The notes beneath the pieces are model-generated. The model was not told the origin of the DNA, did no database searches, and worked only from the letters and a program-made list of their open reading frames with translations. From a virus: a stretch of DNA of 64,000 nucleotides. Within the stretch, counting starts at the first letter, position 1; each line of letters begins with the position of its first letter. The stretch lies in IMG/VR virus record IMGVR_UViG_3300049216_000067. The stretch is one strand, 5' to 3'. The position numbers and the translations under genes are program-made. Below, one piece after another: positions 11,099 through 63,836 of the stretch.

Positions 11099-13477
11099 CT
11101 ATTCTGCAATATCTGCTGCAAATTCTTTAATAATCATCTTTGAATTCATTTTCCTTTTCTGATGATCAATGAAATTCTTACCCATATCAGCGGCAGAATA
11201 ACCAGGATAGTAGCCCATATCACCGCGATAAGTCATCGTCTCAGTGTTAACATAATAATAGTTATCATAACCAAGGTTAGGTACTGAAATGTAGCCATTG
11301 GCATCCAAAAACTTACTATGCTCAGTAATATTTTTCTTCAGATCAACATTGCCTATTAGCCTCTGTCGAATATGACTATATGTGGCGAAATAATAACCAA
11401 TGTGACGGCAATTGGTGGTCTCTGCAACAAGTCTGGTAAGTGCTGTCTGGTAAGACAGTATGTTCTTGTTGTCGGTTAGCACGCCAATCTTAGAATTGAA
11501 ATCTCTGACACCAATACGAGTCTTGGTGAGTTCATCGTAAGGAACAGAAGAATAATTCTCACCATTGCGAATGTCACCATAGCCATCACCATCGGACAAA
11601 TAAATCACATTGGTGATATCAACGTGATGTTTATTCTTAAACTCATCAATGATGTACTTAGATGCCACCAAGGTCTCGTTAAACGGTGTACCACCTAGTT
11701 CAAAACCACAAGCTGTTATGTTTCCCTGATAGGTAGGTTCATTAAAGCATGCGCTAGATTGTGGATCACGATCACGATGATTACTAATCTGTGCAATGAC
11801 ATTGAGCATTGTAAATGCTTTCTTGTACGCATTACCGCTAAGGCTAGAAGAAATCAAATGTCTCAAATTGAAATGACTATCACCAAAAGTGAATCCACCA
11901 TTGACAGGTGTAAACATCATTTTAGAGTTCACACCAAAATTGTAGCTATGTATATCACCAAAGCCGTATACGTCGAACGGGATACCAATACGACGACAGA
12001 AAGTGCAAAGAATCAACACTTGTTCAAGAATTTCACGGACAAGCATTGACATAGATCCACTAAAATCTAAAAACATGATCATGCCGTGAGACTTACCCTT
12101 AGTAATAGTGGTCACCTTGCGAAACACATCCATCGTCAACTTGTAGCGAGACAATTTCTTATCGTCCAATTCACCAGTCTTAGCAGTCAATTGGCGAGCG
12201 TATTGATTGGCATTCTTACGCATCTCGAATTCTTTCACGAGCATCCCAATGAAACCTTTGTTGCGCTTATGGAAAGCCGCATTGAGGCCACTGGATACTT
12301 CAGAGTAGTTCATCGGTGCTTTAACATTAGTCAGTCCGCGCGGATTACTGTTTTGGAACTGAGCAACAATAGAGGTTTCATACTTACCGACAACCATCTT
12401 ATGAGGGACAATAATCGTCTTGAGATTCGCCTTAGGAATATCAAGGTATAGGATGCCCTCGCCATGTTCATTAACTAGATCTTTTTCCTGTTCACGAAAA
12501 AAATCGTCAGTCTCAGACGTAGGTTCTTCGTTTATCTCATCTTCATTTTTACCGGCATTCTTACCACCAGGTTTTTGATTATCATTCTCTTCAGATTCAT
12601 CATCAGATTCTGATTCACCTTCTCCATCCTCAGAGTCACCGTCAGAATCGTCTGATTCATCGGTGCCATCACCTGAGCCACTATCGTTTTCATCAGAATC
12701 GTCAGAGTCTCCAGACTCATTGTCCTCAGAGTCACCATCCTCAGAATCATCGTCACCTTCATCTTTAAATTTATCTTTGGACTTCTCTTTAGACTTTTCG
12801 GACTTATCTTTTTTTGACTTGTCCTTTTCGCCTTTGTTATCGTTCTTGTTCTTCGTCTTCTCAGGTTCTTTGAATTTGGCATAGTCATAGATATCACGAG
12901 CAAGCTGAGCAGCTTCTTCAAAGGTTTCAATGTTCTCAGCACGGTCAACAAATACCTTTTCTTCTTTGTCGAAAGAAATATGTAGATGGGCACCAACTTT
13001 GAAAAATAGATTGATACGGTCGATCAAGCGCAAGCTTGAGTAGTCACCTTTAAGCCTAGAAACTCCGAAAAAGTCGCGTTCATGGAGTGACTTGTAGGCT
13101 TCCGCAAACGGACGACGCAAGCCTGGATACTTACGTTTGATGATTTTCTCGATTCGAGCATCTTCAACGACGTTCAAAAAGCTTTTAATTTTAGGACGAG
13201 ACTTGTCCTTAGCGTCATTGGTGATCGTGTCATGCCAACCCAAAAGCGGCGTGTTGAGTGCATGACTAATTTCATGACCCATAAGCAAATCGTAAATGTT
13301 GCCGTCCATCTCTTGCCAAACGGGACAATGAAGGACACGATTTTTTAAATCAAACTTAGCCGTCTTGATTGGACGGTGACGGACACTGATATTTTCAGTA
13401 GCCATCAACCTGGCTAGGTTGGACTTGTTTTGACTGAGAGTCGGCTTGTCGCGACTTCCAGAATCAAGCTTTTTCAT
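11099..13477 (-). CDS. CobT-like protein: HExxH domain, acidic linker, vWA domain
   Basis: LARLMATENI, GHEISHAL, NVVEDARIEK, D/E-rich linker, FLDFSGSM, GGTP, LSDGDG; adjacent to cobS. Confidence 0.85.
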   Translation of the reverse strand: MKKLDSGSRDKPTLSQNKSNLARLMATENISVRHRPIKTAKFDLKNRVLHCPVWQEMDGNIYDLLMGHEISHALNTPLLGWHDTITNDAKDKSRPKIKSFLNVVEDARIEKIIKRKYPGLRRPFAEAYKSLHERDFFGVSRLKGDYSSLRLIDRINLFFKVGAHLHISFDKEEKVFVDRAENIETFEEAAQLARDIYDYAKFKEPEKTKNKNDNKGEKDKSKKDKSEKSKEKSKDKFKDEGDDDSEDGDSEDNESGDSDDSDENDSGSGDGTDESDDSDGDSEDGEGESESDDESEENDNQKPGGKNAGKNEDEINEEPTSETDDFFREQEKDLVNEHGEGILYLDIPKANLKTIIVPHKMVVGKYETSIVAQFQNSNPRGLTNVKAPMNYSEVSSGLNAAFHKRNKGFIGMLVKEFEMRKNANQYARQLTAKTGELDDKKLSRYKLTMDVFRKVTTITKGKSHGMIMFLDFSGSMSMLVREILEQVLILCTFCRRIGIPFDVYGFGDIHSYNFGVNSKMMFTPVNGGFTFGDSHFNLRHLISSSLSGNAYKKAFTMLNVIAQISNHRDRDPQSSACFNEPTYQGNITACGFELGGTPFNETLVASKYIIDEFKNKHHVDITNVIYLSDGDGYGDIRNGENYSSVPYDELTKTRIGVRDFNSKIGVLTDNKNILSYQTALTRLVAETTNCRHIGYYFATYSHIRQRLIGNVDLKKNITEHSKFLDANGYISVPNLGYDNYYYVNTETMTYRGDMGYYPGYSAADMGKNFIDHQKRKMNSKMIIKEFAADIAE

Positions 13478-14202
13478 TAGCCACCCAATGGCGCTGTGCC
13501 AAGAAGATCAATGTTCATTGACTCATAGCTAGGAATTTCGATCTTGAGATCAGGAATGCTGAGATTGATTTGCTTCTCCAATTCCGCAACACGACGCTCT
13601 TCAATGACTTTTTGCATTGCCTGATTAATGATCTGCTGCTTTGCATGCGCCTGTCGCTGACGTTCCAATTTCTTCAAATTGGTCTTGACCTTGGACTTAG
13701 CTTTGTCAAGCGTGTAACGATCCACTAGACTAGTGTAGACAATGCCGTTCAAATGATCCAACTCATGAAGAAAGGTGCGAGCGGTCAAACCACCAAAGGT
13801 TTCACGATGAATCTTCCCTAACATGTCCTGATATTCAACTTCAATGGTGTCGGGACGATTGATCTTGAGATACATTCCTTTAAAGCTAAGGCAACCTTCT
13901 TCAAAGGAGACCATACCGGTTGTCGAAATAACTTTGGGATTGAAGCAAGCGTACCCTTGACCGTTAGGGGCACCCATAACGAACACACGATGAAGTAGAC
14001 CACACTGAGGTGCGGCCAAACCAACACCACCATGTTGCATCATCGTTCGAATGAGACCAACAGCCAAGCTGGCTGGATTGACAGAAAGAGATTCGAAATT
14101 GAACTCTGGTGTGACCGTATGCAATACATCGTCATATTTGTCTACCAGCGGATAGATCTGGTATTCGACTTCCGTTCCATCTGACATTTTTTCTAAAGGC
14201 AT
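13477..14202 (-). CDS. def: Peptide deformylase
   Basis: GVGLAAPQ, EGCLS, HELDHLNG. Confidence 0.95.
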   Translation of the reverse strand: MPLEKMSDGTEVEYQIYPLVDKYDDVLHTVTPEFNFESLSVNPASLAVGLIRTMMQHGGVGLAAPQCGLLHRVFVMGAPNGQGYACFNPKVISTTGMVSFEEGCLSFKGMYLKINRPDTIEVEYQDMLGKIHRETFGGLTARTFLHELDHLNGIVYTSLVDRYTLDKAKSKVKTNLKKLERQRQAHAKQQIINQAMQKVIEERRVAELEKQINLSIPDLKIEIPSYESMNIDLLGTAPLGG

Positions 14203-17287: not shown

Positions 17288-17869
17288 TTATATGCTTAAT
17301 TGAGTAAAAACTCCATAGTAAGCAGTACCATAGCAGCCTTGCTCGGCTAATTTGACGGTAGAACCTTTGGCACCAATCCATTTATTAAGATTAGCTTCTG
17401 TGAGTTCATGAGGATGACCATCATGGGCAGGAATATCGATCCATTCAAATAGTCTTAAAATTGGTGCAGCAGCAAAGGCATTCTTGATGATCTTTTCTGG
17501 ATCGATAGCATGTTGCATGCAGTTGTAGATCCAGACTTCATCATAATGTCTTAAAGCTAAACCGTTTTTAGCGATATCTTCACCTGGCATGATAACCACA
17601 GTGATATTCATAAGCTTGTATCGATCAACCGTCCATTGTGGATAGGCAATCGGATCAACAACCGTTCCACGCTTTAATCCTTTAGTCTTTAACAGCATTG
17701 ACGATGGTCCACCACCGATATCCATGATGATCTTATTATGGACAGGAAAGGAATAGTGTTCACGTTGAAGACCCATGTACTTGGCATACACGTAGTGCTT
17801 CTGGTCTTCATCGAAGGTGTTGCAACAGTTGCCCCAGTAATCTTCTTCGAACTTATAATCTTCACTCAT
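17288..17869 (-). CDS. Class I SAM-dependent methyltransferase-like protein
   Basis: IMDIGGGP motif I, YNCMQH; start taken at MSEDY (17869). Confidence 0.7.
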   Translation of the reverse strand: MSEDYKFEEDYWGNCCNTFDEDQKHYVYAKYMGLQREHYSFPVHNKIIMDIGGGPSSMLLKTKGLKRGTVVDPIAYPQWTVDRYKLMNITVVIMPGEDIAKNGLALRHYDEVWIYNCMQHAIDPEKIIKNAFAAAPILRLFEWIDIPAHDGHPHELTEANLNKWIGAKGSTVKLAEQGCYGTAYYGVFTQLSI

Positions 17870-18476
17870 TGGTTTCTTCAATAGATTCCAGAGATACTTC
17901 ATCTTCCATGGCTATCTCCAATCCCTTTTTCTTTTTAGGAAGCGCCTTCTTGGCTTTAGCACGTTCCTGAGATTCTTCATACTTACCAATGAAGTCAGTG
18001 ATGTTCTCGTATAGCTCAAACTGTTCACCTGGATTGTCTTCATCACTGTATTCGGCATCGTGAAGGACACCGGCTTGCTGTGTAGCTTTGTATTTGATGT
18101 AGAGATGCTTCTTTTCACGTTGGATTCTACGAACAAACGCATAAAAAGTAATTTTAGAAAAGTAAGCAAATGGATACTTGGACTTCTTAGGATCAAAGTT
18201 ATCAAAGTACATAATACAATTTTCAATAGCATCACCAATCATGTCTGCTTTGAAAGTGTATTGACTAAAATTAGGCTTATGTGAAAGATTAATAGCAATC
18301 AATTGAATTTGTTTGCCAATAGAATCAGGAATCTTTGGTTTAGGTAACTTGGCTCTCTTAGCTGCTCGACACTCTTTACGATATTGAGTGATAGCTGCCA
18401 ACATTTCTTTGTTGTTGACATATGGAGTTGTATCTTTGGATGTGGTGCTTAGTTCTGGGATGAACTTGGATGTCAT
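17862..18476 (-). CDS. 55: Late-transcription sigma factor gp55
   Basis: YVNNKEML, LSHKPNFSQYTFKADMIGDAIENC, FDPKKSKYPFAYF, RRIQREKK. Confidence 0.97.
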   Translation of the reverse strand: MTSKFIPELSTTSKDTTPYVNNKEMLAAITQYRKECRAAKRAKLPKPKIPDSIGKQIQLIAINLSHKPNFSQYTFKADMIGDAIENCIMYFDNFDPKKSKYPFAYFSKITFYAFVRRIQREKKHLYIKYKATQQAGVLHDAEYSDEDNPGEQFELYENITDFIGKYEESQERAKAKKALPKKKKGLEIAMEDEVSLESIEETNE

Positions 18477-23607: not shown

Positions 23608-24135
23608 CTATTTGGCGTATCCATTAGGGAATTTTGGTCTGTTGGTACCGTTCAGGCGCGGACCAACCTTATTGATTCTACCGCGCCTCCAACCTTCCGG
23701 AATGAAGCCGTCTCTACATTGCATAGATGTGATTCCATCGGTTATCCAGAAGAAACCATTGTTGTGAGTGTGACCTATCATCCAAGGAAGAGGTTTGCCT
23801 TTCTTAGCTTTGGAAATAGCCTCAGCTATCTCTGGTGTGCATGGATGTCCGTCGCCTCCAGGAGTCATATTATAGCCACCACCGTAGCTTCTATATTCAG
23901 CTATAAAATATTTCTCCATTTCCTTTGCTGATAACTCATCAAATGCAGTGAAGATATGATCAACAATGAAAGTTGACCAACCATGTTTTCTTATAGATTG
24001 ATGAAGTATATAAAACGAGCCACCTTTAGCAGAACTTTGATGTGCTGCAAGTCTCTGGGTTAGGCTAGTGGACGTTATACCGACATAAATCTTGCCGGTG
24101 TTCCTGTTTGTCAGACGGTAAATGATATAGTGCAT
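23608..24135 (-). CDS. GIY-YIG (Seg-like) homing endonuclease
   Basis: IIYRLTNRNTGKIYVGIT..RLAAH..GYNMTPGGDG, NUMOD-like ISKAKKGK tail. Confidence 0.85.
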   Translation of the reverse strand: MHYIIYRLTNRNTGKIYVGITSTSLTQRLAAHQSSAKGGSFYILHQSIRKHGWSTFIVDHIFTAFDELSAKEMEKYFIAEYRSYGGGYNMTPGGDGHPCTPEIAEAISKAKKGKPLPWMIGHTHNNGFFWITDGITSMQCRDGFIPEGWRRGRINKVGPRLNGTNRPKFPNGYAK

Positions 24136-44262: not shown

Positions 44263-46044
44263 TTAATTATGGGTAGGGTTCGCAGTATTTCCCGTTGTCA
44301 AGAACTGCTTTACAAACACACCGTATCCATCACAAGGTGTCGCATTGGTATCCTTAAGCAAATTGTTGTCTGGTTCACCAGTTACACAGAATGCCCAAGC
44401 TATTGTACCAATTTTATTTGCTTTTGCAAAAGTTGTGATTGCTGAAGCGAAAGGTGCTCCGACAGTATTGGCAGCATTATGATCACCATATTCAGTAATC
44501 ATTACTGGATAACCAGCTGCTTTAATGTCAAGTACCCACTCGTAACAAGTTCCCTTAATACCAGTAGTTGGACTTACAGAATTGTTGGCACCGTAATTAG
44601 CAAGTGTGTAAGCCGGTGTTCCCCATGTAGTACCAAACGTTGGATATGCATGCCAATCAGCAAAAATGTTCTTAAGAGGATCTGTTGGAACATTAGTCAA
44701 CCATGCTGAGTGATCTTGAGCATATGAACGATCAGAAACAGAAATTGGACCGGTAAATCCTGCATTACGAGCAGCAGTAATCATGGTTTGAAACCCACAG
44801 ACTTCCCAAGTTTCAGTGATAGTGAAATCGGCACCGGCATCTGAATTGTTAGAGAACCTACCACAGGTTCCACCAAGCTTTTGAACAACACCGACATCAG
44901 ATGGAACAACAGGACCAAAACTATCCAAGAAAGGCTCATTGAAACAGCCCAAAATCACATTAGTGAACTTACTGTAACGAGTTGCAATTTCGGCAAACGC
45001 TACAGGGCTGGTTGATGCATCAGAAAATGAACCTTGACCTTGTGGTGCCAAATACGCACCATTAGGGTAATTAGGAATAGTCTTAAGGAAAGGAGCAGAC
45101 CAATGTTGCTCGATGATAATGTAGAAACCTGCCGCAGTGTAGGCCAAAACTGCTTGGTCTAGAACTGTTGGATAGATTCCAGCAGGATCAGCTGGCATAA
45201 GCTTTACGCCTTCACCATCGACACAAACCAAACCTAACCAGCTTGCAGTGTTGTATGGAATACGAACGATGTTGACGCCCCATTCTTGTAACAATGCAAC
45301 CGGTGGTAATCCTGGGAATCCAGAATCACCCCAATAATTAGAACCATCCCAATCTTGAATTGCAGTATTTTCGAGACCTGATACGTTAACACCATTAGGG
45401 ACAATTTCTGTTCCGTTTTGATCAACGAATGTATTACCACTCACCTTAATAAATTTCATACCGGTTGTTGGTGGAGTCAAAGGTGTAATAGTACGTACAG
45501 GAATTGAAGTACTTGCTACAAGTGTTGAATTAGAAGTATTTGCTACCGGAGTTGGTGCAGTGTTAGGAGTTGGAACTGGAGTAGGTGCTGGTGTGCCGGT
45601 AACTGTAAATTGACTGTTGTCGAATGCCCAGGTAATAGGAGATCCTACAGCAATGCCGCCTGTAACCGCACCAGATGGCACTGTAGCCACAATCTGAGAA
45701 TCAGATACGATCTTAGTAGGTGCAAATTGTAACCCGCCAATCTTAACCGCATTGGCTTGAGTGAAACCCGTTCCATTAATCGTAAATTGGGTTCCAATAC
45801 CACCAGTTGTTGGAGCAAAACTGGTGATAGATAGGGCATTAGCCACTGGAGTTGTGTTAGGTGTAGGTGTCGTATTTGCAACTGGGGTAGTGTTAGCTAC
45901 AGGAGTTGTATTTCCTACAGGTGTCGTATTTGCAACTGGCGTGTTTGACGCCGGTTGTGGACCTTGCAATATAATTACATTACCAGAATTTAAAGCAGCA
46001 AGATCTGCCGCACTGAGAGTGAGCGTTAATACTGAACCTGTCAT
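44263..46044 (-). CDS. GH5-family glycoside hydrolase with IPT/TIG domain and P/T-rich linkers
   Basis: GVNVSGLE, NIVRIP, FNEP (acid/base), HAYP, ITEYG (nucleophile), AWAF; ITSFAPTTG..TINGTGF IPT domain. Confidence 0.85.
   Translation of the reverse strand: MTGSVLTLTLSAADLAALNSGNVIILQGPQPASNTPVANTTPVGNTTPVANTTPVANTTPTPNTTPVANALSITSFAPTTGGIGTQFTINGTGFTQANAVKIGGLQFAPTKIVSDSQIVATVPSGAVTGGIAVGSPITWAFDNSQFTVTGTPAPTPVPTPNTAPTPVANTSNSTLVASTSIPVRTITPLTPPTTGMKFIKVSGNTFVDQNGTEIVPNGVNVSGLENTAIQDWDGSNYWGDSGFPGLPPVALLQEWGVNIVRIPYNTASWLGLVCVDGEGVKLMPADPAGIYPTVLDQAVLAYTAAGFYIIIEQHWSAPFLKTIPNYPNGAYLAPQGQGSFSDASTSPVAFAEIATRYSKFTNVILGCFNEPFLDSFGPVVPSDVGVVQKLGGTCGRFSNNSDAGADFTITETWEVCGFQTMITAARNAGFTGPISVSDRSYAQDHSAWLTNVPTDPLKNIFADWHAYPTFGTTWGTPAYTLANYGANNSVSPTTGIKGTCYEWVLDIKAAGYPVMITEYGDHNAANTVGAPFASAITTFAKANKIGTIAWAFCVTGEPDNNLLKDTNATPCDGYGVFVKQFLTTGNTANPTHN
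45841..45950 (-). repeat. Coding tandem repeat (NTTPVA-like, about 6 units)
   Basis: NTPVANTTPVGNTTPVANTTPVANTTPTPNTTPVAN in the GH5 N-terminus. Confidence 0.85.
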
Positions 46045-57871: not shown

Positions 57872-58348
57872 TGTTCTGTATCCTCAGTTTGTTTAGATAC
57901 TTCTATCATAGCAGAAAGATCTTTAATATTCATATTTGATGTTCCACGATTGACAATTTGTGATGTTCAAGATGACAAGATCTGCATAACCACTTGACTG
58001 TATGAGGATCGTTATAATCTTCGTGATGTGCTTGACTCTTTGGGTCATCACACATCTCACAGGCTTTCTTAATAATATGGCCACGTTTTAATAAGCCATC
58101 TAAATCACCGTGTTCTTATTACGGTCCTATTATCCCAGCGAACCTTTTAAGACTCAAAATTTTATTTTTAATTTTTTGAAACGGACTTATTAAGAAACGT
58201 GCAGCAGCGAACCTTTAAGAACAATCCTATTAAAATTTTTAAAATTAAAGAGAGCAACTAACGAAGGTACCCCGAACAGAGAGTAGAAGCCACTCCCCGG
58301 ATGGGACCCAGAAACACTGTATTTTTGACATAATAGGATTGGACATAT

Positions 58349-58491
58349 GCTCAGCACATGTGACATATGCTGTCGCATGGCTCAGCACATGTGACATATG
58401 CTGTCGCATGGCTCAGCACATGTGACATATGCTGTCGCATGGCTCAGCACATGTGACATATGCTGTCGCATGGCTCAGCACATGTGACATA
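58349..58491. repeat. Perfect tandem repeat, 31-bp unit, 4.6 copies
   Basis: GCTCAGCACATGTGACATATGCTGTCGCATG at 58349, 58380, 58411, 58442 and a partial copy at 58473. Confidence 0.95.
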
Positions 58492-58557
58492 AGAGTCAAG
58501 TATTAAAACTGTGACACAGTAAGCACTAATAGCACTCCATTACAATGCATTATGGTT

Positions 58558-59121
58558 AATAGGAACTTGTCCGGACGGACATAGGGCTTGACAATACGAT
58601 ATTGTGACGCACAGCACAGAATAGTTCCTATTAGGTGGGCTAATAAGACTGTCTAATGTAACATATTGTGTTTCTCACACTTGACACGCGACTGTCAATC
58701 ATTAATAGGACATAACATAGCTGTGTGCTGATAACGTGATGCACATCACAGATTATACAAATAGGAACTTGTCCGGACGGACATGGGGCTTGACATTATA
58801 AAAGTGTGAACCAGCGCACAGTAACGGCCTACGGCACGTAGGGATTAGTCCTATTAGTGCGCTCGGTGGACACTGCCTCAGTATGAAATTAATTAATAAT
58901 AAGGCATAATAGCATGAATAGAATTCATGTCGTTATTCGTTTGGGCTAGACTAGCTTCTATATCAAAGGGTTAATAGCAATAGGACAGCATAAGACGCTA
59001 TTAGAGCCGATCTAATAGGAAAGGTAATAAAGGGGCAGGGATAGACTGAAAGCCGCTATAAAGCGATCCTATTAGAATCAAATTGAACATAATCTTAATA
59101 GGAACTTGTCCGGACGGACAT
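58558..59121 (+). repeat. Dispersed 25-bp direct repeat, 3 copies
   Basis: AATAGGAACTTGTCCGGACGGACAT at 58558, 58760 and 59097. Confidence 0.95.
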
Positions 59122-59142
59122 AGGATTGTGGGGGGGGGACAC

Positions 59143-59168
59143 AAAAAAGCCCTGACTGGCAGGGCTTT
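59143..59168 (-). terminator. Intrinsic terminator for the leftward island genes
   Basis: AAAGCCCTG-CCAGT-CAGGGCTTTTTT. Confidence 0.8.
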
Positions 59169-59223
59169 GGTTAAGACTCACGGACGTTTCGTCTGTGATA
59201 AGACTCACGGCAGAGAGGGTTTC

Positions 59224-59544
59224 TTAGCGGTCAAACTCCATGAAACCGACACTAGCCACGACATAGGACCGATAGCCGGTCTCGGTCTCGATGATGAGGA
59301 TATCGCCGACACTGGTAGAGCGTGCCCATTCCATACCGTGGTCACGCGAACCAAAGAAGTTAACACCCATGTTTTCCCACCATAGTGATTCAATCGTGTT
59401 AGTCAGTTCGTATGCCTTGCTGAGCGAATCAGTCTCAACGGTAGCCACAAGCTTGTAGTCGCGCATAATCGTGGTGACTGAGGCGCGAAAGTCTTTCGGG
59501 ACTACGAAAGTCTGGTTATTGGCATGCCAGACTTGAATTGACAT
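59224..59544 (-). CDS. Hypothetical protein with RSTSVGD (YodL-like) motif
   Basis: AYELTNTI..ARSTSVGDIL..YVVASVGF; GGAG RBS before MSIQVW. Confidence 0.65.
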   Translation of the reverse strand: MSIQVWHANNQTFVVPKDFRASVTTIMRDYKLVATVETDSLSKAYELTNTIESLWWENMGVNFFGSRDHGMEWARSTSVGDILIIETETGYRSYVVASVGFMEFDR

Positions 59545-59603
59545 AATAGGATTCTCCTTTGGGTTATTGCTGCAAACGGTTCGTTTCGGTTCTAGAGTGA
59601 CTA

Positions 59604-59789
59604 TCATGAATGCGACTCCAGGCTATCAATCGCATAGTCCGCGTTCATGCTCTCAGCCAATTCGATTGCCTCAAAATCATAGAATTCCTGAGAGCCTATC
59701 ACCGCGTTAGTGAGTTCACTCCAAACGACAAATTTGCCGTCGCCTACGGAGCGAACCTGATACGGACCATTTAGTCTTTTGTTGCCCAT
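59604..59789 (-). CDS. Hypothetical protein
   Basis: AAAGGAG RBS; directly downstream of a sigma54 motif. Confidence 0.7.
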   Translation of the reverse strand: MGNKRLNGPYQVRSVGDGKFVVWSELTNAVIGSQEFYDFEAIELAESMNADYAIDSLESHS

Positions 59790-59827
59790 GCTCTGTATCT
59801 CCTTTGATGAATCGACCTAATAGGATC

Positions 59828-59844
59828 ATGCAAGGGGCATGCCA
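59828..59844 (-). promoter_or_regulatory. sigma54 -24/-12 promoter
   Basis: TGGCATGCCCCTTGCAT (GG-N10-GC). Confidence 0.8.
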
Positions 59845-59897
59845 ATAGCAAACAAAACAATCAGGGCGCTAATAGGATCATTCTACTAGCGTGACCC

Positions 59898-59912
59898 TGA
59901 CAAATTTTGTCA
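59898..59912. promoter_or_regulatory. Candidate enhancer (UAS) palindrome
   Basis: TGAC-AAATTTT-GTCA. Confidence 0.6.
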
Positions 59913-59933
59913 GTCTGTGACGGTTTCAGCCCT

Positions 59934-60011
59934 TTAGCGTCGATAGCTGCCAGTGTCGGTGACAGCAACGTAACAGGCGACGATTGCGGCAAACATTAAG
60001 AACATTGACAT
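59934..60011 (-). CDS. 25-aa hydrophobic peptide (not in the ORF track)
   Basis: MSMFLMFAAIVACYVAVTDTGSYRR behind AAAGGAGTACACCAT, identical to the leader of 60027-60239. Confidence 0.55.
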   Translation of the reverse strand: MSMFLMFAAIVACYVAVTDTGSYRR

Positions 60012-60026
60012 ATGGTGTACTCCTTT

Positions 60027-60239
60027 TTAGACAGTTTTGGACAATGAAACAATGTCAGTATCGTTTGACACTACATCGACGCGGCTTAAACCCGTGTAAA
60101 GAAATTTTTCCTTAATAATACGGTTCATTGCGCGGATTGCAGCGTTGCGCGTCGATGCCTCAATGCAAACAATGATGTTCCCGCTTGCATCGTAGCCAAT
60201 GGCATCATAAGTCTCGGTAGAGTCATAATCGCCTGACAT
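60027..60239 (-). CDS. Hypothetical protein
   Basis: Strong RBS AAAGGAGTACACCATATG. Confidence 0.7.
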   Translation of the reverse strand: MSGDYDSTETYDAIGYDASGNIIVCIEASTRNAAIRAMNRIIKEKFLYTGLSRVDVVSNDTDIVSLSKTV

Positions 60240-60279
60240 ATGGTGTACTCCTTTAAGTGAGAGTGATTTAACTTAATAG

Positions 60280-60525
60280 CTATTCGCGCCCATAGTCCCA
60301 GTCACCATGTTGCATCGCGTCTGCGGCATCTGCCTCGCCCTCGCGATAGGCGTCGATAATATCCCGGACGGCAATCTCCGGACTGCAATTGTACGAATTG
60401 ACATACTCGCACGCTTCCATAAACAGGGTTTCCATGTCCAAGTGATCCGGAAGCAACGCATCTTTAATGATGAGCATGATTGCCGCGTTTCGCGCTTGTA
60501 TCGACTGGTATACCGTGTCCGACAT
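60280..60525 (-). CDS. Acidic hypothetical protein
   Basis: AAAGGAG RBS; first gene behind a sigma54 motif. Confidence 0.7.
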   Translation of the reverse strand: MSDTVYQSIQARNAAIMLIIKDALLPDHLDMETLFMEACEYVNSYNCSPEIAVRDIIDAYREGEADAADAMQHGDWDYGRE

Positions 60526-60563
60526 GCTTTGTACTCCTTTGGAATTGATCCGTAGCTAGGATC

Positions 60564-60580
60564 ATGCAAGGGGCATGCCA
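60564..60580 (-). promoter_or_regulatory. sigma54 -24/-12 promoter
   Basis: TGGCATGCCCCTTGCAT, identical to 59828-59844. Confidence 0.8.
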
Positions 60581-60631
60581 ATTCAATCAGGGCACTAATA
60601 GGACGATTCTACCCCGCAATGTGACGCAAAG

Positions 60632-60646
60632 TGACGTAAATTGTCA
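60632..60646. promoter_or_regulatory. Candidate shared enhancer between divergent sigma54 promoters
   Basis: TGAC-GTAAATT-GTCA. Confidence 0.6.
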
Positions 60647-60728
60647 GTCGATTGACAATCAGGGGCACATTTTAACAAGTCGGCTCGTTAAATCTTTCAA
60701 TCAGCGGTCTAGTAGCCCTTGTTTTAGT

Positions 60729-60745
60729 TGGCACGATGTGTGCAT
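60729..60745 (+). promoter_or_regulatory. sigma54 -24/-12 promoter
   Basis: TGGCACGATGTGTGCAT (GG-N10-GC), 40 nt upstream of the DUF932 ATG. Confidence 0.75.
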
Positions 60746-60785
60746 AATCCTAATCGTCAGTCATTTCAAACAAGGAGATTCAAAC

Positions 60786-61841
60786 ATGTCACATCAGATT
60801 GCTAATCAAGCCAATGGTCAAGCTGCTGCGGTATTCAGTGCCTTAGAGGGCGCTGGCTGGACAGGTCTCGGTCAAGAGATTCCGGCAGACATGGCCAATG
60901 ATCCCCGCGCCATTGCCAAATTGTGCGGCGCTAACTTCACTGTTGAAAAACGAGAATGCTACTTTAAGAGTGCTGAAGGCACCTATAAGGCCGCGCGCGG
61001 AAAGGATGTGTTAGTCCGCACCGATACGGATCGCATGCTGAGTGTCGTGTCCGACAATCGCTATCATGTCACTAATCGTCAGCCTGTCGATATCTTCGAA
61101 GCTTTCCGCGACGAACTGGCACAGAATAATCTGACAATCTCGCATGGTGCCGTGCTCCGAGGTGGCGCTGATATCGTCGTTTGCGCCTTGCTTCCCTCAG
61201 AGTTTGATATCGTGGTAGGCAACGGTGACCGAATCAAGCAATACGTCACCGCTAGCACGGGCTACAATGGCCACGGCACGCGCGTCACTAAGTCAGGCTA
61301 TCGCGTCGTGTGCGCTAACACGCATGCCGCGAACATTGCGGATGCTGAGGCAAAGGATAAAATCCGCACCATTCGCGCTAGCACGCAATTGGAGCGCGAT
61401 TCTATCGCTAACCTGATTGTCGATGTGAAAAAGCTTGTGGACGCAGAGCGCGCGACCTTCGATGCCATGGCCAATACTCGCATGTCTAACGAAGATGTAG
61501 CGCGCTACTTCGCGGATGTGCTGGAATTCAACATCGCGGATCTGAACCGTACCAATGCGAACGGCAAGAAACTCGTTAGCACTAAAACTCAAAACATCGT
61601 GAATCAATTGCTTGCGAGCTATGCGAATGCTCCGGGCGCGGACATGGCCATGGGGACCGCATGGGGCGCATTCAACGCGGTGACCTACTACGCGACGCAT
61701 CTTAAGACTGTGCGCGATACCAGCGGTTCAGGTGAGTCTGCGGCTCGCGTCGCGTCTAACCTGAATGGGGACGCGGCTCAAATGAAATTGCGTGCCTTGC
61801 AGCTAGCGGCAAGCTACTCGGATATCGCAGTAGCCGCGTAA
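60786..61841 (+). CDS. DUF932 (TIGR03299-like phage/plasmid) protein
   Basis: WTGLG, LVRTDT, GAVLRGG, RVVCANT, GTAWGAFNAVTYYATH; AAGGAG RBS before MSHQI. Confidence 0.85.
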   Translation: MSHQIANQANGQAAAVFSALEGAGWTGLGQEIPADMANDPRAIAKLCGANFTVEKRECYFKSAEGTYKAARGKDVLVRTDTDRMLSVVSDNRYHVTNRQPVDIFEAFRDELAQNNLTISHGAVLRGGADIVVCALLPSEFDIVVGNGDRIKQYVTASTGYNGHGTRVTKSGYRVVCANTHAANIADAEAKDKIRTIRASTQLERDSIANLIVDVKKLVDAERATFDAMANTRMSNEDVARYFADVLEFNIADLNRTNANGKKLVSTKTQNIVNQLLASYANAPGADMAMGTAWGAFNAVTYYATHLKTVRDTSGSGESAARVASNLNGDAAQMKLRALQLAASYSDIAVAA

Positions 61842-61849
61842 TGACTCAC

Positions 61850-61880
61850 GGCGCGGGGACCGTGAAACCCGCGCCCTTTT
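61850..61880 (+). terminator. Intrinsic terminator
   Basis: GGCGCGGG..CCCGCGCC-CTTTT. Confidence 0.7.
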
Positions 61881-61887
61881 CTTAAAG

Positions 61888-61930
61888 TGTGAAGTCTGAC
61901 ACGCATTTTAAGGAAAGGGTTTAATAGAAT
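61888..61930 (+). promoter_or_regulatory. CRP-family class II promoter candidate
   Basis: TGTGA-AGTCTG-ACACG centred at -41.5 relative to a TAGAAT -10 (61925-61930); no -35 consensus. Confidence 0.55.
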
Positions 61931-61966
61931 TCTCTTAACACGCAACGGACACAAGGAGATATTAAT

Positions 61967-62554
61967 ATGTTAAACATCAAGGGCGCTTTCGTGGTCATCA
62001 AACAGTCTGGCGTCGAGCCGGTCATCCTTGGCGAGCGCCAGTATGTCGGCTATATGGAGCGCGTGACGATTGTAGGCTTTGACAAGGCTAACCATTTCGT
62101 ATTCGGGGCCGGTACGATTGCCGCGTTGCCTTGCACGCAAGCGTGCATGGAATCCGTAGCCCTGAACTATGCCGATACCGAGAAGCACGGCAAAATGGTC
62201 AAGGCAATCTGTGCGCGCATTGCGCTCGGTATGCCGCTAGGCAACGGCAAGGATATCGGGGAGGGTGGCTTGGGCATCAAGTCGCCTGTAGACGCGCCTA
62301 AGTCGCCTAATGGCGGTTCGCGCGTCTCGGTCCCCGATTCAATCAACGCCTAACCCAAGGAGAATATTATGGAAAATAAACTAGTCAAGGAATTGCGAGA
62401 CATCTCATATGAGATAGACGGTATTGCCGCTGACTTAGCGGCAGGGGATATCGACCCAGCAAAAGCCGCTGAAACCCTGGCGAACGTTGCCATGGGCTTG
62501 CGCATTGGATTGAATGCACTCACACGCTCGGTTCCTGACTTAAACAACGCCTAA
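61967..62554 (+). CDS. Two hypothetical proteins (61967-62353, 62369-62554)
   Basis: AAGGAG RBS in front of each. Confidence 0.7.
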
Positions 62555-62571
62555 CGAAAGGAGCATATATT

Positions 62572-62931
62572 ATGTCAACTAACGCTACCCTCGAATTTGT
62601 CGATTCAAACAAGTGTAAGTGTTATGTCTATAAACACTGGGACGGCTCTCCTAGCGGAATCAAAGAGGCAATCTTCAAGGCTCTTCGCTTTTCGTGGCTA
62701 TTGCCCCGCTTTGAGGCGGATGAATTCGCGGCATCATTCATTGCGGCTAACAAGGTCGGACCCGGAGATGTCCGCGTGATAGGCAAACTGAAAGACTATT
62801 CTGGCGACTATCATTATGCCATATCGCATTCTGTGGATATTTGGATTAAGGCATATTCACTCGATTTTAAAGACGGCAAACGCACCTTGATTTATGACGG
62901 CAGTTTCCGCGAATGGAATCCGATAGACTGA
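62572..62931 (+). CDS. Conserved phage hypothetical protein
   Basis: MST.A..YVYKHWDGSP..LPRFEADEFAASFIAANK motif. Confidence 0.7.
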   Translation: MSTNATLEFVDSNKCKCYVYKHWDGSPSGIKEAIFKALRFSWLLPRFEADEFAASFIAANKVGPGDVRVIGKLKDYSGDYHYAISHSVDIWIKAYSLDFKDGKRTLIYDGSFREWNPID

Positions 62932-62965
62932 CAATTAGTGTCACATTGTGACGGCACATTGTGAC
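62929..62965. promoter_or_regulatory. Candidate enhancer
   Basis: TGAC-AATTAGT-GTCA followed by CACATTGTGAC twice. Confidence 0.6.
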
Positions 62966-63026
62966 ACTTTTAAACATCGAGCAATTGAAACTGGCCTACT
63001 AGACCGACGATTGAATGATTTAGACT

Positions 63027-63043
63027 TGGCACGCCGATTGCAT
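63027..63043 (+). promoter_or_regulatory. sigma54 -24/-12 promoter (consensus)
   Basis: TGGCACGCCGATTGCAT matches TGGCACG-N4-TTGCW. Confidence 0.88.
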
Positions 63044-63080: not shown

Positions 63081-63836
63081 ATGAATATGAATGGCGCGAT
63101 TATCTATAAAGGACCGAGTTTGCTAGACGGCTCTCCGATTGTCGTTATCGCTAGTGGCCTAGCCGCTAAGTCATCTAATCGTAAGACTGGGGACATGGTT
63201 CAGACTTACATTCTACGCGCCGACATGGAGCCGACTACGGCAGTTAAATCAGGCGCTGATAGTTCAATCTGCGGCGCATGTCCGCATCGCGGCATCGCGC
63301 ACGGCGACCATAACGAAGGTCGGACATGCTATGTCAATGTCGGTCAAGGCCCTTTGCAGATTTATCGCGGCTTTGTTCGCGGCATTTATCCGACTGTAGA
63401 CGCCGACAAGCTTGCTTATATCGGCGCTGGGCGCAATGTGCGGCTCGGTACGTATGGTGATCCTGCGGCAGTGCCTACGCATGTTTGGGAAACCCTTGTT
63501 TCGAAGTCTGAGGGGCATACCGGCTACACGCATCAATGGCGCAATGCTCCGACGTTACGCACACTGTGCATGGCCAGCGCCGACAGTGAGGCAGATGCCA
63601 TTGAGGCGCATGCTAGTGGCTGGCGTACCTTTCGCGTTGCCTTGCCTTGTGATGCACCTAAGCTTGCGTCTGAAGTAGTCTGTCCTGCCAGTGCTGAGGC
63701 AGGTAAGAAGCTTGCTTGTGCCGAATGTCTCGCGTGCTGCGGCGCTGACGGTAGGAAAGGCTCGATTGTGATTCAGGCACATGGCGGTTTTGCTGTCATG
63801 TCCAACATTAAGAAACGTTCAGAATTGAACATCTAA
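63081..63836 (+). CDS. Cys-rich conserved phage protein (possibly Fe-S binding)
   Basis: IIYKGPSLLDG, NRKTG, ICGACPHR, CYV, RLGTYGDP, GYTHQW, CPAS, CAECLAC. Confidence 0.75.
   Translation: MNMNGAIIYKGPSLLDGSPIVVIASGLAAKSSNRKTGDMVQTYILRADMEPTTAVKSGADSSICGACPHRGIAHGDHNEGRTCYVNVGQGPLQIYRGFVRGIYPTVDADKLAYIGAGRNVRLGTYGDPAAVPTHVWETLVSKSEGHTGYTHQWRNAPTLRTLCMASADSEADAIEAHASGWRTFRVALPCDAPKLASEVVCPASAEAGKKLACAECLACCGADGRKGSIVIQAHGGFAVMSNIKKRSELNI

Follow-up and report, generated by a model that had tools for sequence, protein, structure and literature searches.

The locus at positions 59,828 to 63,043 of the virus record IMGVR_UViG_3300049216_000067 raises the question of why a phage of the T4 type, for which a cascade from sigma-70 to gp55 is the textbook scheme of transcription, should carry four motifs that resemble promoters of sigma-54 (RpoN). 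The stretch of DNA analysed, 64,000 nucleotides (64 kb) in length, is referred to as the window throughout, and all coordinates are positions within it. An earlier note on this DNA had proposed that the four motifs constitute a third promoter class, by which expression of a gene island is made conditional on a host signalling state. The reading favoured on balance by the present analysis is that the motifs are enhancer-dependent sigma-54 promoters and that host PilR is their most likely activator. The sequence features that such a class would display (boxes, phased upstream sites and selective conservation, with gp55 also present) were all found, and PilS-PilR is put forward as the candidate signalling system.

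Exactly four matches to TGGCAYGNNNNNTGCAT (TGGCAYG-N5-TGCAT) were found in the window, at 59844-59828 and 60580-60564 on the minus strand and at 60729-60745 and 63027-63043 on the plus strand, whereas dinucleotide-preserving shuffles contained a mean of 0.02 matches and none of 100 shuffles reached four. The motifs, designated P1 to P4, are as follows.

59828-59844, minus strand: P1, sigma-54 -24/-12 motif, TGGCATG-CCCC-TTGCAT, predicted start ~59818
60564-60580, minus strand: P2, sigma-54 -24/-12 motif, predicted start ~60554
60729-60745, plus strand: P3, sigma-54 -24/-12 motif, TGGCACG-ATGT-GTGCAT, predicted start ~60755, divergent from P2
63027-63043, plus strand: P4, sigma-54 -24/-12 motif, TGGCACG-CCGA-TTGCAT, no mismatch to the consensus, predicted start ~63053

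All four lie in gaps between genes, each aimed at a gene, and all have GG at -24, GC at -12 and the exact 10-nt spacing that defines sigma-54 boxes. The distance from the end of the motif to the ATG is 38 nt for P1 (ATG 59789), 38 nt for P2 (ATG 60525), 40 nt for P3 (ATG 60786) and 37 nt for P4 (ATG 63081). The description in the earlier note of four intergenic, correctly oriented GG-N10-GC motifs, 37-40 nt before start codons, was thus borne out by exact matches. A Shine-Dalgarno sequence precedes each of these start codons, and the predicted leaders are ~27-31 nt long when transcription starts are placed ~11-12 nt past the GC. The sigma-54 consensus scan that the note had suggested was run on the 64-kb window using the general consensus TGGCACG-N4-TTGCW, to which P1-P4 are the sole sites with zero or one mismatch (15/16 or 16/16 positions); sites with two mismatches occur at chance level (8 observed, 8.6 expected) and have the GG or the GC disrupted. 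A 26-nt core is identical between P1 and P2, with 34 nt at 85% alongside, and ATCCTA is conserved directly past the boxes. Sigma-70-like sites are not enriched between 57 and 64 kb (13 observed, 11.7 expected). P1-P4 are very probably functional sigma-54 promoters, as judged from the DNA sequence.

Read in the orientation of the gene, each promoter follows one layout, namely an array of GTGAC/GTCAC half-sites, a 20-nt element and the -24/-12 boxes. The arrangement TGAC-N7-GTCA-N5/6-TGAC has three copies in the window (59898, 60632 and 62929), all of them before P1-P4, and was absent from 300 shuffles. The gaps between array and -24 box are 62 nt (P2), 64 nt (P1), 71 nt (P3) and 75 nt (P4), and the arrays are centred at about -86 to -119, within the ~80-150 nt before the start at which an activator site is expected. 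The upstream activating sequences (UAS), to which no strand is assigned, are the following.

59897-59921: UAS of P1, CTGAC-N7-GTCAG-N3-GTGAC, a PilR-type triple half-site ending 64 nt from the -24 box
60620-60658: UAS common to the divergent P2 and P3, two GTGAC 10 bp apart and then GTGAC-N7-GTCAG-N4-TTGAC, 62 nt to P2 and 71 nt to P3
62928-62965: UAS of P4, CTGAC-N7-GTCAC-ATT-GTGAC and another CACATTGTGAC, including GTCACATTGTGAC, a perfect palindrome; 75 nt to the -24 box

The 20-nt element, AATCAG-N4-CTAnTAG, stands between the arrays and the boxes in either orientation, centred at -37 to -50. Its copies, likewise given without strand, were delineated by repeat-family comparison.

59856-59875: 20-nt element of P1, centre ~-48
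60582-60601: 20-nt element of P2, centre ~-37
60696-60715: 20-nt element of P3, centre ~-50
62995-63016: 20-nt element of P4, inverted, centre ~-48

Two further repeats were observed in this part of the window. The octamer TAATAGGA (TCCTATTA in gene orientation) has 25 copies in the window, 14 of them within 58125-60603; copies stand just past the P1 -12 box and inside the 20-nt element of P1 and P2, and others lie near gene starts. A 31-bp tandem repeat of 4.8 copies (58349-58503) is located 3' of the P1 operon, where genes are sparse over ~1.1 kb; every unit contains TGAC-N7-GTCG, which differs by one mismatch from the enhancers' distal dyad, and no -24/-12 motif is nearby. The repeat could represent extra PilR sites, iterons or something else.

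For the search for an activator, a pattern derived from the phage only, the P4 palindrome followed by the boxes (GTCACANTGTGAC-N60-90-TGGCAYG-N5-TGC), was scanned over 596 Gb of bacterial and archaeal genomes. It identified 40 bacterial loci, compared with ~4 expected by chance according to our own estimate, mostly in Gammaproteobacteria and including Pseudomonas, Xanthomonas, Lysobacterales, Steroidobacteraceae, Salinisphaera and Methylophaga. At 17 of the 40 loci a type IV pilin (N-terminus GFTLIELM) is encoded by the next gene, no more than 600 nt away, and these 17 form one BLAST cluster. A third half-site (STGAC-N7), not required by the pattern, is present at 21/40 bacterial and 22/32 viral loci. 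In a Xanthomonas metagenome-assembled genome (MAG) the order is pilS (6TM_PilS, HisKA, HATPase), pilR (REC, Sigma54_activat, HTH_8), an open reading frame (ORF) of 193 aa, the UAS and promoter, and the pilin gene, with the UAS-promoter site lying on the same strand as pilS-pilR and ~1.5 kb 3' of them. Among native pilin promoters the gaps fall into clusters of 64-67, 76 and 83-90 nt, and among the viral loci into clusters of 60-64, 71-78 and 82-89 nt; the gaps of the window (62, 64, 71 and 75 nt) lie inside these clusters.

Transcription of pilA and other pilin genes depends on sigma-54 and PilR, the membrane pilin pool being sensed by PilS (PMC6058289). An arrangement of UAS, integration host factor (IHF) site and RpoN promoter has been described for pilE of commensal Neisseria (PMC6528607), and the activators listed for Xylella are NtrC and PilR only (PMC3224663). 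Because the upstream sites of the phage are those of native pilin promoters, PilR is the likeliest activator, and the genomic association makes this assignment probable. A separate observation concerns a protein family, mostly of ~80 aa (270 aa as called in L195; with MDDNEVIAVLVAGYDDEG in three members). In MAGs of Steroidobacteraceae and other Gammaproteobacteria (loci L195, L204, L214, L216 and L226) its gene comes first after a PilR-type promoter; it may belong to the PilR regulon without being a pilin gene, or be of prophage origin.

The assignment of the phage to the T4-like group, also made in the earlier note, was upheld. The window encodes a major capsid protein ~60% identical to cyanomyovirus gp23, portal, sheath, SbcC-like, SbcD-like, UvsY and prohead protease proteins and a gp55-type late sigma factor (17862-18476), so that the T4-like myovirus set of gp23, gp20, gp18, gp46/47, UvsY and gp55 is present. 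A few TATAAATA sites were also found in the window, and because these accompany the gp55-type late sigma, the T4 late transcription scheme applies to the phage backbone. Since the window has its own gp55-type late sigma, sigma-54 would be an additional promoter class. Genes up to 60.5 kb are nearly all on the minus strand, with divergent transcription from 60.6-60.7 kb, and the GC content is 41.7% window-wide against 50% from 60 kb on.

A search of all six frames of the window for a GAFTGA-like motif or the Walker-A motif of a bacterial enhancer-binding protein (bEBP) gave no match, in agreement with the earlier note, and the two AAA ORFs of the window are generic AAA and AAA_5. PF00158 was tried for a phage-encoded activator and gave only sub-threshold Walker-A matches to generic AAA ATPases, which were rejected. 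The Sigma54_activat domain was found neither in the window, nor in the 32.9-kb contig (part of the same region) of a relative ~91% identical in the island region, nor in the 98%-complete genome of a relative with an 85% identical capsid protein, nor in three complete or near-complete unrelated phage genomes with sigma-54 motifs, two of which have PilR-type sites.

Conservation of the promoters was assessed in the ~91% relative (IMGVR_UViG_3300009697_000016 and Ga0116230_10009674). P3 is identical there, the boxes of P2 are intact with all four spacer bases altered (CCCC to GTGT), and P4 reads TGGCATG-ACGA-TTGCAT, with a permitted C/T exchange in the -24 box and one change in the spacer. The three half-sites of the P4 enhancer are identical and its N7 spacer is altered at 4/7 positions; the half-sites of the UAS shared by P2 and P3 are conserved. 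Over two regulatory regions, boxes and half-sites comprise 76 identical and 3 changed positions, compared with 268 identical and 73 changed in the other intergenic sequence (Fisher one-sided p = 4e-5), a result to be taken as supportive and not independent, given that the window itself served to define the elements. The gene content differs, since the relative (L082) is without 59560-59931, holding the 61-aa gene and P1, and without 60014-60558, holding the 81- and 70-aa genes; these inserted blocks are bordered in the window by the duplicated P1/P2 promoter cassette. Matches to the sigma-54 motif in G003 and G001 are intragenic and were rejected as chance.

The same architecture was found in other phages. 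The strict pattern occurs on 33 unrelated IMG/VR contigs with a GC content of 0.37-0.64 and lengths of up to 128 kb, with a pilin gene downstream in none and mostly small phage ORFs in that position, and several of these contigs have perfect IHF sites as well as half-sites in rows of as many as eight. A provirus of Methylovulum miyakonense HT12, a cultured host (L203 = L257), is among the examples. That pilin-promoter copying is a general phage strategy, with early or accessory genes placed under PilS-PilR and sigma-54 in many unrelated phages, is a possibility that we regard as rather doubtful. In the M. miyakonense provirus (L203 6875-7320; L257 1780-2230), the PilR-type enhancer, a perfect IHF site and the sigma-54 promoter are followed by ~330 nt with no ORF, which may hold a non-coding RNA or a long leader. 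Contig G009, the third of the unrelated phage genomes in which no Sigma54_activat domain was found, has three clustered sigma-54 motifs and a palindrome unlike that of P4. Three clustered motifs were observed at ~72.7-73.3 kb in L182 (IMGVR_UViG_3300009506_000005, a phage of 113.8 kb that has terminal repeats); two of the three are arranged divergently about the different palindrome TGTTTCAC-AG-TGAAACA, which suggests that a second, non-PilR activator is used by a phage.

Several findings weigh against PilR-dependent control of P1-P4. At 23 of the 40 bacterial loci no pilin gene is next, and a few of the 40 lie in Firmicutes before transporter genes, so that other regulators may have similar sites. 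The strict pattern is present in 4 of 101 Xanthomonas-family genomes, and the exact palindrome is thus not universal there. Within the window, the perfect palindrome occurs at P4 alone, with one-mismatch or N4-spaced forms at P1 and P2/P3, and the 20-nt element departs from the IHF consensus WATCAR-N4-TTR at one or more positions. The phage palindrome corresponds to TGT-N9-ACA, which is not obviously the P. aeruginosa PilR site, given as a second-hand consensus of TGT-N11-ACA with GTCT elements (PMC8035640, PMC6058289). The activator search in this phage covers 64 kb of a genome of perhaps ~170 kb. No such promoter motifs were found in the 85% capsid relative (166.7 kb, 98% complete) or in a 79% capsid relative; because these two relatives are without the promoters, P1-P4 are a recent, island-specific acquisition, and they could be dispensable.

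Some of these points would suit real sigma-54 promoters served by another activator, either a different host bEBP with a similar half-site or one that is phage-encoded outside the window. The 23 loci that do not precede pilins, the published P. aeruginosa PilR consensus (PMC8035640), from which the phage palindrome differs, and the window being a minor part of the genome all leave room for such a factor, and the different palindrome of G009 indicates that phages may use several activators. However, 17 of the 40 loci do precede pilins, far above chance for a phage-derived pattern, pilS-pilR adjoin one such site, and Sigma54_activat was found in none of the 64-kb window, the 32.9-kb contig of the ~91% relative, the 98%-complete 85% capsid relative and the three unrelated phages examined. 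Another activator is accordingly regarded as unlikely.

A second alternative is that P1-P4 are inactive passengers, imported with a GC-richer island whose control regions fail in the host of this phage. The GC content of the island (50% versus 41.7%), the two capsid relatives with no motifs and the differing island gene content of the ~91% relative are in keeping with an import of this kind. The boxes and half-sites have nevertheless been selectively conserved while spacers and flanks diverged (p = 4e-5), the cassette with its 26-nt identical core has been duplicated before newly inserted genes, and no alternative sigma-70-like promoter is prominent for the island genes; an inactive state is therefore improbable.

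The sites might instead be decoys that titrate PilR, sigma-54 or both during replication and so lower host pilin, for example against pilus-dependent superinfection. Several PilR-type sites do lie inside 4 kb, and the 31-bp tandem array with its TGAC-N7-GTCG dyads has no promoter close by, but each UAS is paired with a correctly spaced and oriented promoter 37-40 nt before a gene, which a decoy would not need; a decoy role is very unlikely as the explanation of P1-P4, even if titration and promoter function are not mutually exclusive. Equally improbable is a superficial likeness to sigma-54 in a motif read by a phage sigma factor or a modified polymerase: T4-type phages do have promoter classes of their own and the window encodes a gp55-type sigma, and the conserved ATCCTA resembles the frequent octamer TCCTATTA, yet the motifs match 16/16 or 15/16 positions of the extended sigma-54 consensus with exact spacing, the sites upstream of them are shared with bacterial pilin promoters, the architecture recurs in unrelated phages at GC 0.37-0.64, and gp55 promoters are TATAAATA-like.

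Under PilR-dependent sigma-54 control, host polymerase with sigma-54 would form a closed complex at the -24/-12 boxes. The GTGAC/GTCAC array, 62-75 nt before the -24 box, would be bound by an AAA+ activator of the host, likeliest PilR, which would reach the polymerase by DNA looping, perhaps aided by a bend at the -37 to -50 element, upon which the promoter would open. The predicted P2 unit consists of the 81-, 70- and 25-aa genes and the P1 unit of the 61- and 106-aa genes, both read leftward; the P3 unit would consist of the DUF932 gene and the P4 unit of the phrog_2554 gene and a 119-aa gene. Expression of the island would thereby be tied to RpoN and to the state of PilS-PilR, a measure of the pilin pool in the inner membrane, and would not rely on the phage's sigma-70 early or gp55 late class. 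The genes concerned are listed below.

60280-60525, minus strand: 81-aa gene, first behind P2, no family match, absent from relative G004
60027-60239, minus strand: 70-aa gene of the P2 operon, no family match, absent from relative G004
59934-60011, minus strand: 25-aa hydrophobic peptide gene (MSMFLMFAAIVACYVAVTDTGSYRR), last of the P2 unit, strong ribosome-binding site, 71% conserved in the ~91% relative
59604-59789, minus strand: 61-aa gene, first behind P1
59224-59544, minus strand: 106-aa gene, second behind P1, followed by a terminator-like hairpin (59146-59168)
60786-61841, plus strand: DUF932 protein of 351 aa behind P3 (PF06067, E = 2.8e-22), followed by a terminator-like hairpin (~61850-61884)
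61967-62931, plus strand: genes for three small products of 128, 61 and 119 aa, located after the P3 unit and before P4, with no sigma-54 motif of their own
63081-63836, plus strand: Cys-rich protein of 251 aa, phrog_2554, behind P4, followed by a 119-aa gene that runs past the end of the window

The 25-aa product of the P2 unit could be a small membrane peptide. The 251-aa protein belongs to a large phage family (>590 IMG/VR contigs) with seven invariant cysteines. Its structure was predicted with confidence (predicted local distance difference test, pLDDT, 89); a Foldseek search with the model gave no match at E <= 0.001, and the only neighbours were weak partial barrels of the radical-SAM type (PFL-AE, QueE; VIA-align Z ~4). 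When the island was compared with GenBank phages using BLAST, short matches inside the 251-aa gene were obtained and nothing else. At 80 loci encoding a homologue of the 251-aa protein, the gene is preceded by no sigma-54 motif, and none was found upstream of the DUF932 homologues (44-72% identity). Because the homologues of both proteins are at loci with no sigma-54 motif, the P1-P4 promoters do not accompany the DUF932 or phrog_2554 genes from genome to genome; the exception is L234, in which the 251-aa homologue is encoded by the second gene behind a PilR-type promoter.

The closest known counterpart is the control of pilA and pilE by PilS-PilR and RpoN, with which the phage promoters share the -24/-12 boxes, a GTGAC/GTCAC UAS ~60-90 nt before the -24 box, a possible DNA-bending element, the triple half-site layout and the phased distances. 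They differ in that the genes driven are DUF932, phrog_2554 and small ORFs and not pilins, that the genome is that of a lytic T4-like phage, that the PilR sites are predicted, and that two promoters (P2 and P3) use one divergent enhancer. Literature searches returned no description of a phage genome with promoters of the pilin or PilR type.

Phage reliance on sigma-54 is described as rare, with a precedent in Pseudomonas phage YuA, part of whose transcription depends on it (PMC5053324, PMC10914365, citing Ceyssens et al. 2008). YuA is a siphovirus in which the annotated -24/-12 regions fall within the module of structural and lysis genes, whereas the phage studied here is T4-like, the genes are those of an accessory island, the boxes are near-perfect and there is a candidate activator. 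The three annotated -24/-12 regions of YuA contain no consensus-grade motif and no GTCAC palindrome and show no likeness to P1-P4. We know of no activator that has been named for the sigma-54 promoters of YuA.

Among the T4 promoter classes (sigma-70 early, MotA/AsiA middle and gp55/gp33/gp45 late), likeness is confined to the gp55-type sigma and the few TATAAATA sites. Activation of T4 late promoters by the sliding clamp is enhancer-like in concept. Sigma-54 with a host bEBP nevertheless falls outside the T4 classes and needs ATP hydrolysis by a host signalling protein. Arbiol et al. in 2010 reportedly described mobile early-promoter cassettes (PeSLs) that shuffle genes in the hyperplastic regions of T4-type genomes. 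The island is alike in its repeated promoter cassettes flanking small accessory genes and in the insertion of gene blocks next to the duplicated P1/P2 cassette; it is unlike them in that a PeSL consists of a sigma-70 early promoter with a stem-loop and the P1/P2 cassette of a sigma-54 promoter with an enhancer.

If PilR-dependent control of the island is correct, a host-state-dependent layer would be added to the T4-type cascade by way of a host two-component regulator. PilR is a concrete host factor, and it regulates the type IV pilus, a receptor for many phages. The regulator is active where cells carry pili, and a fall in the membrane pilin pool hyperactivates it. The PilR signal could be strong and sigma-70-independent and could report a piliated cell or an engaged pilus, possibly serving pilus-adsorbing phages as an immediate trigger, and arrays of PilR sites might also divert PilR from the pilin gene of the host. 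How the phage would gain is a matter of speculation: it might obtain a strong promoter that works without sigma-70, sense piliation or titrate PilR. Mutation of rpoN or pilR in the host would be expected to affect these phages after adsorption, beyond the loss of the pilus, and P1-P4 would provide compact PilR-responsive promoter parts. The dozens of unrelated viral contigs suggest an unrecognised, recurrent borrowing of a strong host promoter that escapes sigma-70-directed shut-off.

Three genes elsewhere in the window, all on the minus strand, were recorded as minor observations.

44263-46044, minus strand: protein of 593 aa with a GH5 cellulase domain
13477-14202, minus strand: peptide deformylase-like gene
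23608-24135, minus strand: GIY-YIG homing endonuclease, directly downstream of the major capsid gene

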